Below are positions 1,225 through 12,105 of a DNA stretch of 12,610 nt, in pieces. The notes beneath the pieces were generated by a model. That model was not told where the DNA came from and searched no databases. It worked only from the letters and a program-made list of their open reading frames with translations. The DNA comes from a virus (taxonomy: Duplodnaviria; Heunggongvirae; Uroviricota; Caudoviricetes): positions 1 through 12,610 of the IMG/VR virus record IMGVR_UViG_3300029060_000171; one strand, 5' to 3'. How positions within the stretch are numbered: position 1 is the first letter of the stretch; each line of letters opens with the position of its first letter. Made by a program: the position numbers and the translations under genes.

Positions 1225-3186
1225 TCATGCCGCGGCATCCGCGTTGTTCACTTCCACCTTCACACTGTCAATCAGCAGCGTATATGTCGCCGCCTTTGAT
1301 ATGCCTGTCAGTTGCAGTTTGTCCGCCGCCCCTGATGCCGGAGATTTCACCAGTGTGAACGGCGTCCCCCGTTTCTCATCCAGTACCGGCGTCACCTGAA
1401 TGCTGTTGTTTCCGGCAAACTCAAAAGCCAGTGTGTGCCATCCGTTATCAAAGACCCCGAACGTATCCAGCTTCGCATTCGGCTTCTTGTGGTGCATCGC
1501 GTTCAGGTTCGTCGCATCCGTCTGCAGGAAGAAGGACATCAGCATGTCGTTGCCTTCCTCTGCCAGCGTCACTCCCTCCGGCAGGGACGACAACTGCCAG
1601 TAAATGCCCAGGGCAAACTGATTCGGCACCAGTGAACCCGGCAACTTAAACCGTACGCTCACACGTCCTCCTTTCTTCAGCAACTCTGCCCCCTGCCCGG
1701 CTGCATCATGCTCCAGAAACCAGATGTGGTTTTCCGGTTTATTCAGTTGCAGGGCCTTACCTCCCGTAGCCCCCGCATCACTGACCACCGCTTCAGCAAT
1801 GTTTTTGTTAACATTGTCTCCGCTCGCCGGTTTGTGATAATAGCGCCAGCCCTGTGATGCCAGGTCTTCGCCGGACGCCAGCAGACTCATCAGGGTTCGG
1901 TTACTGACCGGACCTTCCGGCTCTCTCTCCGTACCTTCACCGGAAGGTCCGGTGGGCTTCACCGTATCAGGCTGTTTTCCGGTAATGAATTCAGCGGTTC
2001 TCCCGGCATGCACAAGAATCGCCGTTGCCAGACGGTCGGAAATAATCCCACGACGTGCCCATGATCCAAAATGCGTTTTACGGTCAGCCGTCGTCCAGGT
2101 TTTGGCGTCCGTTCGACCACCGGCTCCGTAATACCCAATATCCGCAACATCCGGATCTTCTGACGGCTCGTTGGTACCCACATTTCGCCCGTTTTCATCC
2201 GTCATAAACGGCACAAAGAAGATTTTTTTTGCGGATTTCGTCTTATATGCACCATACACCGCATCGTATTGCGAAGAATAAGTCTGCTTCCAGTAGTAGG
2301 TCGTGTCGCCACAAATCCAGGGAACTGATGACGGAGAGCCCCCGAGACACTGACCTCCGAATTCCGACAGGTCAGAACGATATTTTTCCACCATGGAATC
2401 AAACAGCCCCGGCTGAGTGGCGTATGCACCCTGTTTCAAATCAAACTCGCCCTGCATCCAGACCACTGCAAGCAGAATATTTTTAGGGTTGGCCTTCAGT
2501 GCGGCCTGAGTACGGGTAAGCAGGTCCTTGTACAGTGGCTTATCTACACCCCAGCGTGCCGAGGTCTCGCTTGCGCCGGTGGATTCGCTGAAGGTACCTT
2601 CATCGCCCGCCAAAAATGCAGAACCACCACGGCAGCACGGAACCAGAAGAATACCGGCATTCGCCGGAATAAACGGCAACAATTTCTTCGCGATATGTAA
2701 TCCCTGCCCCACGCATCCATACTGAGCTGCGCTGGCTTTCGGGTGTGAAAACTTACTCAAATCCTGAACATCATGCAGGCAGTGGTCCGCAGGAATAATG
2801 TCATTGTAGTTACAGGACGCACCACCCGGCGTGACAGTGCTGCGACGCGCCAGCTGTTTAATACGCGGGTCCGGACGGTCATATGTCTCCGGCAGCGGAA
2901 GCCCTTCACCATACGCCATACCGTTTGACTGCCCGGCCAGGGCAACAACAAAGTAATACTCCGGGTTGCTGGTAGTGCTGATAACTGCGCCTTCTCCATC
3001 CGACGACTTCACCACCACAGGTGTGGTGACATCACCTTCCGCCGTAATGGCCTGCATCAGGGTATAAGGCGTGATGGCCACCGGACTGCCAAATGGCTGC
3101 CACCCCTCCTTCAGTTTTTGTGTCAGTCGTTTCGCAAGGTCTGACGGCGATGCCGCCCTGACCACGTCATAGTGTTTAAATGCCAT
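1225..3186 (-). CDS. nanS-p: prophage NanS-p-type sialate O-acetylesterase (9-O-acetyl-N-acetylneuraminate esterase): N-terminal DUF1737-like region, central SGNH/sialate-esterase-like domain, C-terminal lectin-like region; 653 aa
   Basis: ATG at 3186 with GGGAGGA Shine-Dalgarno 4 nt upstream. Size and layout match the 640-660-aa esterases found downstream of the tRNA/stx position in EHEC lambdoid prophages. Family call is by recall of that architecture, not by alignment. Confidence 0.75.
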   Translation of the reverse strand: MAFKHYDVVRAASPSDLAKRLTQKLKEGWQPFGSPVAITPYTLMQAITAEGDVTTPVVVKSSDGEGAVISTTSNPEYYFVVALAGQSNGMAYGEGLPLPETYDRPDPRIKQLARRSTVTPGGASCNYNDIIPADHCLHDVQDLSKFSHPKASAAQYGCVGQGLHIAKKLLPFIPANAGILLVPCCRGGSAFLAGDEGTFSESTGASETSARWGVDKPLYKDLLTRTQAALKANPKNILLAVVWMQGEFDLKQGAYATQPGLFDSMVEKYRSDLSEFGGQCLGGSPSSVPWICGDTTYYWKQTYSSQYDAVYGAYKTKSAKKIFFVPFMTDENGRNVGTNEPSEDPDVADIGYYGAGGRTDAKTWTTADRKTHFGSWARRGIISDRLATAILVHAGRTAEFITGKQPDTVKPTGPSGEGTEREPEGPVSNRTLMSLLASGEDLASQGWRYYHKPASGDNVNKNIAEAVVSDAGATGGKALQLNKPENHIWFLEHDAAGQGAELLKKGGRVSVRFKLPGSLVPNQFALGIYWQLSSLPEGVTLAEEGNDMLMSFFLQTDATNLNAMHHKKPNAKLDTFGVFDNGWHTLAFEFAGNNSIQVTPVLDEKRGTPFTLVKSPASGAADKLQLTGISKAATYTLLIDSVKVEVNNADAAA

Positions 3187-3368
3187 GAATCCTCCCGGCC
3201 GGGATAATATTGTGAGTAAAATAAGGAGCGGGCTGAAGTCCGGAAGTTACAGGACAATGGCAGAAGAGAGACGACAGCCCGCAATTCGAAAAAGACCGCG
3301 CAGTTGCGCAGCCTTATGAATTCTGGTTAAAATCCATTCGATTATAAAAATGTATATCTCATGCTGTT

Positions 3369-3425
3369 GCCCGAACCCACTCGGGCTTTTTTTTGCCCAC
3401 AAGAAAGCCCCTCCGGAGAGGGGCT
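3369..3425. terminator. pair of opposed hairpins: plus-strand terminator GCCCGA-ACCCAC-TCGGGC + T8 (3369..3394), and an 8-bp perfect hairpin AGCCCCTC-CGGA-GAGGGGCT (3406..3425) that on the minus strand is followed by UUCUUGU
   Basis: Both inverted repeats were read directly. The first is a textbook plus-strand terminator. The second is a possible weaker minus-strand terminator. Located in the tRNA-to-esterase intergenic region. Confidence 0.45.
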
Positions 3426-3639
3426 AAAGCCGCGTATCTGTATCATCATGCACATGATGCCGGGTGCCTCCCGGTGAGTTCAGTATCAGCACCTGAACCC
3501 GCACAGAAAGGATAAGGGGCGGTGACAAAACACCAGTTGCTGATTGCCCCTCCGCACAGGGGGATTCACCATGCCAGTTTCTTTTAACAAACTCCCCGCA
3601 AAACAGACAACTGTCAACCGTCTGAATTGTGAGACATTT

Positions 3640-3667
3640 AAAAAAAAGCCCGCAAAAGCGAGCCGGG
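3640..3667 (-). terminator. intrinsic terminator immediately downstream of the tRNA trio (minus strand: stem GCUCGC/GCGGGC, loop UUUU, then U8)
   Basis: The plus strand reads A8-GCCCGC-AAAA-GCGAGC; on the minus strand that is a 6-bp stem (one G-U pair) plus an 8-U tract, 12 nt after the 3' end of the last tRNA. Confidence 0.55.
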
Positions 3668-3678
3668 AAAAATAAGTC

Positions 3679-3755
3679 TGGCGCGTTGTACTGGATTCGA
3701 ACCAGTGACCGATTGCTTAGAAGGCAATTGCTCTGTCCGGCTGAGCTAATAACGC
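3679..3755 (-). tRNA. tRNA-Arg (anticodon UCU), CCA encoded
   Basis: Reverse complement folds as a cloverleaf: acceptor GCGTTAT/ACAACGC (one mismatch), D-arm GCTC..GAGC, anticodon stem ATTGC/GCAAT with loop CTTCTAA, T-arm ACTGG-TTCGAAT-CCAGT, then G-CCA. Matches the argO/argN-type rare-codon tRNAs carried next to Q in Stx-like phages. Confidence 0.8.
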
Positions 3756-3768
3756 AGGGTACAGATAA

Positions 3769-3845
3769 TGGACCGCCTTCGGGGACTCGAACCCCGCGCA
3801 ACCAGCTTCGAAGGCTGGCGCTCTTTCCTGATGAGCTAATGGCGG
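3769..3845 (-). tRNA. tRNA-Arg (anticodon UCG), CCA encoded
   Basis: Cloverleaf with anticodon stem CCAGC/GCTGG and loop CTTCGAA, T-arm CGGGG-TTCGAGT-CCCCG, acceptor CCGCCAT/AAGGCGG (one mismatch; unusual C1). The fold was read by hand, so the anticodon call is less certain than for the flanking tRNAs. Confidence 0.65.
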
Positions 3846-3852
3846 TATGTGA

Positions 3853-3928
3853 TGGTGGCCCTTGCTGGATTTGAACCAGCGACCTGGCGATTATGAGTCG
3901 CTCGCTCTCACCACTGAGCTAAAGGGCC
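3853..3928 (-). tRNA. tRNA with CAU anticodon, most likely tRNA-Ile2 (lysidine type, ileX/ileZ-like) rather than tRNA-Met
   Basis: Sequence GGCCCTTTAGCTCAGTGGTGAGAGCGAGCGACTCATAATCGCCAGGTCGCTGGTTCAAATCCAGCAAGGGCCACCA differs at only a handful of positions from E. coli tRNA-Ile2 (ileX) as I recall it. Anticodon loop CTCATAA. Confidence 0.8.
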
Positions 3929-3956
3929 GAGCCAAAAAATAATAATCAGATGAAAA

Positions 3957-4670
3957 TCAATAATCAAGCCCTTGCCTGGATACATATCTGTCTGGCGGGA
4001 AGCCATAATAGCGGTGAAATACAGAAATAAAGTAGGACCTGCTTGAATAACCGCATTTTTCTGCTATAGCCTGTCCATATCCATGCCGGGAACATAACAT
4101 ATTTACAGCAACACGCATCCGCTCTTCCAGCAACAAGCGACTGAACATGCCCCCTTCATTTTTCAGTTTTGTCTTTAACAAACTCTCACTCATATGCAAC
4201 TGTAGAGCAATCGCACCAAGCGTCCAGCTTGCTGATATATCTGTCTGAATTATCGCCCTGACTTTGGCACTTATGCTGGATAAACATCCACTTAAAAACA
4301 ATGACATCCGTTCATCTGTTTCAAACAGAGACAGGCAGGCCATCATAAGAAACATATCCGTGGCCTCTCCGGAAAATCCCTGGCTGGTAATTAAAGCCGC
4401 AGCCAACGCAGGATTGTTGGGTTCCAGCAACAGGTAAAGCGGAATGTCAGTCAGACGAGTCCTCGTCAGCTTATGCTGACTTTCCAGATATTGACTTACG
4501 ACGGATTCGCTTATATCGACAATTTTAACTTTGCCATAATGCATAAGGAAAAGCTCCCTGATGCATTTGGTGGCCAGAACAACTGAGCCTGGCTTAAGTG
4601 ACAACGTATCCTTTTCAAGAAAAATATTAATTGGGGAGCAAACCATGATAACTGAACAGACAACAGCCAT
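3957..4670 (-). CDS. AraC/XylS-family transcriptional regulator (237 aa), prophage cargo
   Basis: C-terminal 100 aa carries the two-HTH AraC signature (WTLGAIALQLHMSESLLKTKLK...YGQAIAEKCGYSSRSYFISVFHRYYGFPP). AT-rich codon usage. A perfect TATAAT (minus strand, at 4706..4711) lies about 35 nt upstream of the ATG. Could belong to the prophage-encoded AraC-like regulators reported in EHEC (Psr/PatE type), but I cannot confirm identity. Confidence 0.8.
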   Translation of the reverse strand: MAVVCSVIMVCSPINIFLEKDTLSLKPGSVVLATKCIRELFLMHYGKVKIVDISESVVSQYLESQHKLTRTRLTDIPLYLLLEPNNPALAAALITSQGFSGEATDMFLMMACLSLFETDERMSLFLSGCLSSISAKVRAIIQTDISASWTLGAIALQLHMSESLLKTKLKNEGGMFSRLLLEERMRVAVNMLCSRHGYGQAIAEKCGYSSRSYFISVFHRYYGFPPDRYVSRQGLDY

Positions 4671-11236: not shown

Positions 11237-12105
11237 TTACGCCCCCTTACCTCTGAAGGGTTCAGCGACAAATTTATGAGACTGGCCAGTAGCGCCGCGT
11301 CGTTGATGCGGTCATACAGACTTACAGCCAGCGGGGATTCGGCTTTTGCCAACATGGGATAAAGCTGCTGCAGCCAGACCTTGTGGATTACCGACAGGTG
11401 GGAGTAAAGCACGCTGGCGTTATCTGCGGCATCGCTCAGCGTGGATGGCTTTGAAAGCAGTTTTTCCATCTGGTTAAAGGCATTGATGTATGCCTCTTTG
11501 AACCGGGCAGCACGTTTACCCGTGAAACCCATAGCAAGAAACGCAAAGCCGTCGCGGGTTATTTGATAGCAAGGTAGTTTGCGGCCTGTGCAATCGGTGT
11601 AATCACTCACCGAAAAATTGCGGGCAGTGAATGATGCAGAGCATTCAAGCGTGCGGATCTTTTTCAGTACATCGTCATGACGTTTGGAGAAGAAGTTGGC
11701 AACAGCCAGGGATGAAGTAACAGCCTGACCATCAACGATGGCAATTTCAGGTTGAGTGAGGGTTGGGATCGTAGCCATGATGGCAGCCTCTTTGGTGATT
11801 TTTAATAACTCACCACCAAGGCTTTCCACGACCTTATTGGTGGTGAGACGTACAGGGGTGGAAATACCGGTCACCAAAGAACCCGGCCCAACCGAAGTTG
11901 GCCCTGCACGCCCCACCATAATTTGGGCGTAACGATGCTCATGACACGAAAAAACCGCATGAGCGCGGTTGTGCTCTATATTGAATTTCGGGTTTCCACG
12001 CCCGGCACCCGCTTTATAAGGTGCCTGAACAGTGTAACGTCCCGGAATTGCAGAATCAATATGCTGGTGGCGATTGGTAAACAGTTTGAAAATATTCCGG
12101 ATCAT
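11233..12105 (-). CDS. rha: Rha-family phage regulatory protein. The Rha domain is 11233..11778 (181 aa, own AAAGAGG Shine-Dalgarno and ATG at 11778); the ORF continues in frame upstream to an ATG at 12105, adding 109 aa homologous to the 74-aa small ORF.
   Basis: TSSLAVANFFSKRHDDVLKKIRTLE ... GRKLPCYQITRDGFAFLAMGFTGKRAARFKEAYINAFNQME is the Phage_pRha signature. Whether the product is a 290-aa fusion or two proteins cannot be decided from sequence. Confidence 0.7.
   Translation of the reverse strand: MIRNIFKLFTNRHQHIDSAIPGRYTVQAPYKAGAGRGNPKFNIEHNRAHAVFSCHEHRYAQIMVGRAGPTSVGPGSLVTGISTPVRLTTNKVVESLGGELLKITKEAAIMATIPTLTQPEIAIVDGQAVTSSLAVANFFSKRHDDVLKKIRTLECSASFTARNFSVSDYTDCTGRKLPCYQITRDGFAFLAMGFTGKRAARFKEAYINAFNQMEKLLSKPSTLSDAADNASVLYSHLSVIHKVWLQQLYPMLAKAESPLAVSLYDRINDAALLASLINLSLNPSEVRGRK

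Follow-up and report, generated by a model that had tools for sequence, protein, structure and literature searches.

A convergent small-RNA gene pair with a fourth anti-sRNA allele beside an empty cargo slot in a lambdoid prophage

Results

Genes and borders of the interval

The DNA analyzed, referred to here as the window, was a stretch of 12,610 nt from the IMG/VR virus record IMGVR_UViG_3300029060_000171. It represents a lambdoid prophage in reverse orientation. The late genes are on the minus strand, and the order is Q, a tRNA trio, a terminator, a pair of small-RNA (sRNA) genes, nanS-p and the lysis genes. The interval between the tRNA trio and nanS-p spans positions 3187-3678 (492 bp).

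The left border of the interval was formed by three tRNA genes on the minus strand (3679..3928), which were identified by ARAGORN and by Rfam tRNA matches as Met-CAT (ileZ type/Ile2; 3853-3928), Arg-TCG (3769-3845) and Arg-TCT (3679-3755). The trio was of the ileZ-argN-argO type, as the initial annotation of this DNA had named it, and its homologues in Sakai are annotated as ileZ2, argN2 and argO2. The terminator scan placed an intrinsic terminator of the tRNA operon at 3639..3664 on the minus strand (GGCTCGC-TTTT-GCGGGCT followed by T8; scan match 3664-3647). At the other border was a minus-strand ORF of 653 aa (1225..3186), which was assigned to nanS-p because it contained the Pfam domains DUF1737, SASA esterase and DUF6645. 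From the ORF list and conservation, its start codon was placed at 3186-3184 and its Shine-Dalgarno sequence (GGGAGGA) at 3196-3190.

The interval itself had been said to hold no credible ORF in about 490 bp, and this was borne out. Only short ORFs of 40-53 aa were found, plus a 125-aa TTG ORF that spanned two of the tRNA genes, and related loci contained indels that were not multiples of three. The RefSeq (PGAP) records inspected had no feature annotated over the sRNA cassette.

The late-operon leader contained a minus-strand gene (3957-4670) for a 237-aa AraC-family HTH protein (PF00165, PF12833), situated between Q and the tRNA trio. We take this protein to resemble the prophage-borne AraC-like regulators of EHEC, and its gene is possibly further cargo. 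Towards the early or immunity end, Rfam matched a C4 antisense RNA (RF01695, 83.6 bits, 11836-11923, minus strand) and, adjoining it, isrK (RF01394, 61.6 bits, 11948-12024, minus strand). The stretch 11836-12024 resembles a regulatory RNA locus of the P1/P7-c4-like or IsrK-like kind. In related prophages, PasA and PasC are located between the genes for the sialate esterase and the holin, according to a 2026 preprint on these sRNAs; the matching stretch in the window is at about 900-1225 on the minus strand, downstream of nanS-p.

Identification of a convergent sRNA gene pair

Rfam was scanned at the gathering threshold, with cut-offs of 47 bits for STnc100, 63 bits for AsxR and 56 bits for AgvB. 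On the minus strand, STnc100 (RF02076) matched 3603..3395 with 130.6 bits over model positions 1-206, which is the full length. On the plus strand, AsxR (RF02703) matched 3339..3391 with 63.0 bits, exactly at the cut-off. The AgvB model (RF02702) gave 43.4 bits on the same short RNA, below its cut-off. The sub-threshold matches of 16-23 bits (Leu_leader, OmrA-B, ncS025 and others) represented merely terminator-like hairpins. The 3' ends of the two genes abutted at 3394/3395 with no overlap.

The same pair of families was found in the equivalent place in prophage Sp5 of O157 Sakai (STnc100, 207.7 bits; AsxR, 88.1 bits). The initial annotation had proposed an alignment to stx-flanking sequence: the 486-bp spacer from stx2B to nanS-p in Sp5 aligned to the interval at 86% identity.

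Convergent Hfq-bound sRNAs between a moron CDS and a conserved downstream ORF have been described in eight Sakai prophages, and the Sp5 pair in that study is AsxR plus EcOnc27 (Tree et al. 2014, PMC4104026). EcOnc27 is the same as sRNA103 and corresponds to the Rfam STnc100 match. Such pairs were named "dyads" in a 2021 review. The interval is this known convergent pair of Hfq-type sRNA genes of lambdoid prophages, located between the cargo slot and nanS-p. The dyad architecture is already published, and the finding is in that respect ordinary. A suspected link to regulatory sRNAs of EHEC prophages could be given names: the AsxR/AgvB/EcOnc03 anti-sRNAs on one strand, and STnc100 (EcOnc27, sRNA103) on the other.

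The cargo slot

The interval had been regarded as an empty toxin slot. The slot was indeed empty, but it was not the 490 bp, as Sp5 keeps the same module between stx2B and nanS-p. In Sp5, stx2AB is inserted upstream of the module, directly after the tRNA terminator. The Sp5 terminator (GGCTCGCTTTTGCGGGCC-T5) lies after argO and before stx2A, and homology with the window resumes about 40 nt past the stx2B stop codon, at TCACAATTCAG. In the window, the T8 run of the tRNA terminator led straight into AAATGTCTCACAATTCAG. The cargo site is thus unoccupied, and the alignment with Sp5 placed the moron (cargo) insertion junction at 3636..3640. No stx-like sequence was found anywhere in the window (best tblastn E-value 0.85), and the arrangement of a Stx-converting prophage, with stxAB between the tRNA trio and the dyad, was not seen.

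The distance from the tRNA genes to the anti-sRNA reflected the content of the slot. It was 292 nt in the window (empty slot). With stx2AB in the slot it rose to 1617 nt, and with cargo for a protein with a TerB domain (PF05099) or a lipoprotein with a TolA_C domain (PF06519) it was about 970-1640 nt. The conserved block lay 167-177 nt from the start of nanS-p in nearly all loci listed, and 171 nt from it in the window. The alternative morons seen in the slot were Stx2, Stx1, a 143-aa TerB-domain protein and a 142-aa TolA_C-domain lipoprotein. Examples among the IMG/VR loci (L003-L121) are L042, L013 and L008 for the TerB-like cargo, and L024 and L061 for the TolA_C-like cargo.

The late-strand RNA of the STnc100 family

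The gene matched by RF02076 (3395..3603, minus strand) is a relative of EcOnc27, sRNA103 and PasD. In the conservation profile it consisted of a conserved multi-helix core (about 3574-3450), an allele-variable central loop (3536-3503) and an allele-variable single-stranded stretch before the terminator (3452-3426). The perfect 8-bp hairpin at 3406-3425, which had been reported as adjacent to the plus-strand terminator, was scored as a minus-strand terminator. It is followed by UUUCUU and forms the end of the STnc100-like RNA.

RNAalifold with 52 distinct sequences of this region recovered the Rfam architecture. Compensatory pairs were found in the closing helix (GC/AU/GU), in the GGGUUCAG/CUGAACUC hairpin (GC to AU in 15 vs 34 sequences, also AU/GC/UA) and in the terminator (CG to UA). 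The single window sequence folded no better than its shuffles (z = -1.55). By every criterion that could be tested, the RNA is a member of the STnc100 family. Its score was lower than that of the Sp5 copy (130.6 vs 207.7 bits) because the loop and the pre-terminator region are allele-specific. In EDL933, STnc100 copies are transcribed, and one has been verified by Northern blotting. The published phenotypes (increase of fimZ and espA, OMV cargo and HUS-associated SNPs) concern the stx2-linked STnc100 allele.

A candidate promoter for this RNA consisted of TTGTCT (3610-3605), an 18-nt spacer and TGtTAAAAG (3589-3581) on the minus strand. The block TTTGTTAAAA was invariant across 68 modules, and the layout TTGnnn-N18-TAAAA(A/G) recurred even beside unrelated upstream sequence. 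This promoter (3581..3610) would set +1 near G3574, where the closing helix begins, and the RNA would then be about 178 nt long. On Northern blots, family members ran at 177-247 nt (Tree et al. 2014, PMC4104026), and the Sp5 sizes of 235 and 247 nt would put the 5' end near 3630. The 5' end may lie at about 3574 or at about 3630, and the sequence fixes neither the end nor the promoter.

Two hexamers on the minus strand had been emphasized as promoter elements. TATAAT was present at 3341-3346 as reported, and TTGACA was present with an offset of 2 nt (3612-3617 rather than 3614-3619). The promoter reading was not supported. Neither hexamer had a partner at promoter spacing. TTGACA occurred 5 times in the window versus 8.0 expected, which puts lone hexamers at chance level. 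TATAAT was rejected as the nanS-p promoter: it lacked a -35, it lay in the allele-variable part of the anti-sRNA, and 3 of its 6 positions matched in about 34% of the modules. TTGACA was not supported as the -35 of the STnc100-like RNA: the -10 at 17-nt spacing would be GAGTTT, which is poor, the hexamer was about 60% conserved, and it lay in a predicted hairpin loop. The predicted 7-bp hairpin that holds it (CAGACGG...UUGUCUG; 3603-3623, minus strand) lies in the 5' extension of the STnc100-like region. This hairpin would fit a stretch that is transcribed, not a promoter.

Pairing of the two dyad partners with each other was also considered. The window pair gave -11.7 kcal/mol (p about 0.05 vs shuffles). 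It was rejected from the comparison across alleles, in which cognate pairs (mean -8.1) were no better than all combinations (mean -9.2).

The plus-strand anti-sRNA

The gene on the opposite strand (3339..3394, plus strand; 53-56 nt) was delimited by the AsxR match. It contained an allele-specific 16-nt 5' region, CGAUUAUAAAAAUGUA (3339-3354), a conserved region (3355-3368), and a terminator with its stem at 3369-3386 and a U8 run at 3387-3394. The initial annotation had recognized this terminator, with which the AsxR-like RNA ends. Because it faces against the late operon, it had been taken to suggest either a small plus-strand transcript or insulation of the late genes from convergent transcription. 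The first of these agrees with the transcript of the AsxR/AgvB/EcOnc03 class that is predicted here.

The promoter comprised a -35 TTGCGC (3304-3309), an 18-nt spacer and a -10 TAAAAT (3328-3333), with +1 at C3339. The +1 was placed there because the transcription start site has been mapped in Sakai. The promoter region (3336-3297) was nearly invariant in all four 5' alleles described below, and promoter activity is predicted for the window. The 5' end CGAU matched the published sequences of AsxR and AgvB, whose 5' ends were mapped by RACE (Tree et al. 2014, PMC4104026). The 3' 40 nt were identical to the 3' part of EcOnc03. The fold was modestly better than those of shuffles (z = -1.98).

The short members of this family are 51-60 nt long, with a conserved 3' part of about 42 nt and a variable 5' part of 14-18 nt (PMC4104026). 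AgvB is 60 nt, AsxR 54 nt and EcOnc03 51-56 nt. CRAC and Northern blotting were used to test these homologous anti-sRNAs for expression, for Hfq binding and for destabilization in the absence of Hfq (Tree et al. 2014, PMC4104026). The window RNA had the size and the conserved 3' part with terminator of this family. Its allele-specific 5' region of 16 nt fell within the range of 14-18 nt. Its position was also that of the family: antisense to the late operon, convergent, and between the moron site and the downstream ORF. The covariance score reached the threshold of the AsxR model exactly, and did not reach that of the AgvB model. On these sequence features, the short RNA is assigned to the prophage anti-sRNA family. 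With the AsxR score at the cut-off, slight further divergence would make annotation pipelines miss it.

A fourth 5' allele

When IMG/VR was scanned for exact-pattern matches to the short RNA's conserved 3' part, at least 119 loci were obtained. For allele classing, the IMG/VR loci listed were combined with the window, its homologue in FDAARGOS_144, and Sakai Sp5. Four discrete 5' classes were found among the matches listed: the AgvB type (58), the window type (26), the EcOnc03 type (21) and the AsxR type (16). One locus was too truncated to be classed. No intermediates between the 5' alleles were seen among the matches listed. The 18-nt 5' end of the window type was identical in all 26 of its loci among these matches. 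The partner sRNA beside the window allele was mosaic, with at least two different variable regions.

The alleles track the cargo. Among the matches listed, the AsxR allele adjoined stx2 in 16 of 16 loci, and the EcOnc03 allele adjoined stx1 or an empty slot; none of the 26 loci of the window allele adjoined stx. From its sequence, we regard the window 5' type as a fourth allele that is distinct from the named AgvB, AsxR and EcOnc03.

Of 5426 complete E. coli genomes, 175 carried the window allele in full length; strains with this allele include FDAARGOS_144 (NZ_CP014111.1, around 1,555,000) and VR50. In the O157:H7 genomes among the matches listed, only the shared 3' 40 nt were matched, at 100% identity. 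This probably explains why the allele did not receive a name in the Sakai study.

Search for a target

AgvB mimics the targets of GcvB, and AsxR destabilizes FnrS, which raises the expression of chuS. The published pairing between AsxR and FnrS stands without proof by compensatory mutations because the S1 mutants were unstable.

The plus-strand RNA could be a functional AsxR, which would pair with the terminator loop of FnrS, destabilize FnrS and de-repress the haem oxygenase gene chuS. AsxR was the best Rfam match of the short RNA, nt 1-7 and 9-12 of the 5' region were the same as in AsxR, and the cofold binding energy to FnrS was equal for both alleles (-5.9 kcal/mol). On the other hand, 4 of the 16 positions in the variable region differed, with 2 more in the linker. 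In the register that pairs nt 1-12 of AsxR with the FnrS terminator loop, the window allele formed one pair fewer. Its best local duplex with this terminator reached -5.0 kcal/mol, compared with -8.4 for AsxR, and was not better than shuffles (p = 0.22); FnrS was rejected as the target. The discreteness of the alleles and their opposite linkage to stx among the matches listed also spoke against it. A strict test for AsxR, that is, an identical 5' seed and a position 3' of stx2AB, found neither in the window. We consider it unlikely that the window RNA acts as AsxR.

A panel of 20 core Hfq sRNAs from K-12 was used for cofolding. AgvB-GcvB, which served as a control, ranked first (-16.2). The window allele gave no outlier among the 20 sRNAs, and the best was RprA (-8.2 kcal/mol, z = -1.4). 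This negative is weak, because the panel recovered AgvB-GcvB and missed the AsxR-FnrS control.

Terminators, leader hairpins and conservation

The terminator scan covered 2900-4300 and was compared with shuffles. It found 5 terminator-like sites versus 1.5 +/- 1.5 in the shuffles.

Conservation was profiled as identity relative to the window over 68 distinct related modules. Identity of 0.9-1.0 was seen in the anti-sRNA promoter region (3336-3297), in the anti-sRNA 3' part and in both terminators. The variable parts were the anti-sRNA 5' end (3354-3339), the STnc100 loop (3536-3503) and the pre-terminator stretch (3452-3426). The initial annotation had made its proposal depend in part on conservation of the hairpins in related prophages. 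Both were kept across the 68 distinct modules, and in their stem columns the identity to the window was 0.8-1.0.

Two conserved hairpins in the nanS-p leader were absent from the initial list. The first is a third late-strand terminator-like hairpin (3289..3313, minus strand; stem 3313-3294), GGCUGCGC-AACU-GCGCGGUC followed by U5. It was paired in 25 of 25 distinct sequences in the RNAalifold consensus, and no covariation was seen among them because the sequence was almost invariant. It overlapped the anti-sRNA -35 on the opposite strand, and weak sub-threshold Rfam matches of the terminator type also fell on it. The second is a long hairpin (3229..3281, minus strand) with the stem 3281-3269/3241-3229, followed by the U-rich UCCUUAUUUU. 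This one showed compensatory changes, CG to UA and AU to GC, among 25 distinct sequences.

The overlap with the -35 bears on a possible action of the short RNA in cis, in which convergent transcription or perfect antisense pairing over 3339-3394 would reduce the read-through that reaches nanS-p and the lysis genes. Any late transcript running through this stretch would be the full complement of the short RNA, the -35 of the short RNA has sequence in common with the late-strand terminator hairpin, and the 2021 review gives the reason for the dyad arrangement as unclear. Against this, the characterized homologues act in trans from plasmids, and a role in cis leaves the discrete 5' alleles, kept identical, unexplained. 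A cis role could be compatible with action in trans; as the explanation of the short RNA we find it improbable.

The four late-strand terminator-like hairpins within 490 bp might also suggest that the hairpins do no more than insulate or terminate the late and tRNA operons, and that the sRNA genes are inactive relics in a non-EHEC prophage. This is very improbable. The short RNA has an intact and near-invariant promoter, start-site context and terminator. A relic should decay, but the allele was identical in the 26 viral loci among the matches listed and full length in the 175 complete genomes. Moreover, the plus-strand terminator has only the sRNA as a plus-strand gene to terminate.

That the interval encodes a small protein is hardly credible, in spite of the 40-53-aa ORFs on both strands and the ribosome footprints on some EDL933 copies of STnc100, as no ORF was preserved in the related modules, protein coding was ruled out by frame-breaking indels (e.g. 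7, 12 and 17 nt in the variable blocks), and the conserved blocks coincided with RNA helices that carry compensatory changes.

Discussion

The best explanation of the interval is very probably a convergent sRNA dyad, in which the short RNA would be a sponge with a fourth 5' allele, beside an empty cargo slot. An STnc100/EcOnc27 sRNA on the late strand and an AsxR/AgvB/EcOnc03-type sRNA on the opposite strand form a conserved dyad, with the slot unfilled. The late strand would encode a structured RNA of the STnc100/EcOnc27 family, roughly 180-240 nt long, that ends at the 3425-3406 hairpin. The opposite strand would encode an sRNA of 53-56 nt, expressed from its own conserved promoter and ending at the GCCCGAACCCACUCGGGC-U8 terminator.

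By analogy with the characterized homologues, both RNAs would be produced in the lysogen and bind Hfq, and the short RNA would be a sponge. The 16 nt at its 5' end, which are specific to the allele, would pair with and inactivate an sRNA of the core genome, so that host regulation is reprogrammed from the lysogen, and its constant 3' part would supply the terminator. It is possible, and we propose it tentatively, that the window-type RNA is a functionally distinct fourth anti-sRNA that sponges a core sRNA other than GcvB or FnrS.

In lambdoid phages, polymerase modified by Q overrides terminators. In the lysogen, nanS-p and the lysis genes are probably silenced by the four hairpins on the late strand, which are the terminators of the tRNA operon and of the STnc100-like RNA and the two hairpins of the nanS-p leader; only Q-modified polymerase would read through them. 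The dyad together with the two extra leader hairpins may be a Q-dependent insulator cassette, which is compatible with the sponge function proposed for the short RNA.

The apparently empty spacer after the prophage tRNA genes is a conserved cassette of two sRNA genes, neither junk nor the scar of a toxin. This mostly settles a question of annotation. What is new is that stx-negative prophages, mostly from human-derived strains, carry a fourth allele of the anti-sRNA; new as well are the linkage of allele and cargo and the leader hairpins. The sponge mechanism has so far been studied only in EHEC, and a new target, if true, would broaden it. If the fourth allele does sponge a new core sRNA, sponge regulation by prophages would extend from EHEC to extraintestinal and commensal E. 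coli.

The order of elements at the locus, that is, Q, tRNA trio, terminator, cargo, dyad, nanS-p and lysis genes, is the same as at the moron site downstream of PR'/Q in other lambdoid and Stx phages, except that the cargo position is unoccupied in the window. The late-strand RNA has in common with STnc100/EcOnc27/sRNA103 the core helices, the terminator, the site upstream of the sialate esterase gene and the convergent anti-sRNA. It differs from the Sp5 copy in the central loop and the single-stranded region before the terminator, which are allele-specific.

AsxR (EcOnc02, RF02703), from the Stx2 phage Sp5, is placed and oriented in the same way with respect to nanS-p and to its STnc100-like partner. 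The two RNAs share the promoter with its -10 TAAAAT, the start CGAUUAU at +1, the terminator and a length of about 55 nt. The window RNA differs from AsxR in the substitutions in the 5' region (4 of 16 positions) and in the linker (2 more), in having no stx2 beside it and in its weaker predicted pairing with FnrS. EcOnc03 (Sp9) and AgvB (EcOnc01, RF02702; cryptic O157 prophages) belong to the same family, but their 5' regions are unrelated to that of the window RNA and 5-7 nt longer. AgvB, which acts by target mimicry of GcvB, provides the mechanistic model for this RNA, although the window allele lacks the CACAACA mimic of GcvB targets that AgvB carries.
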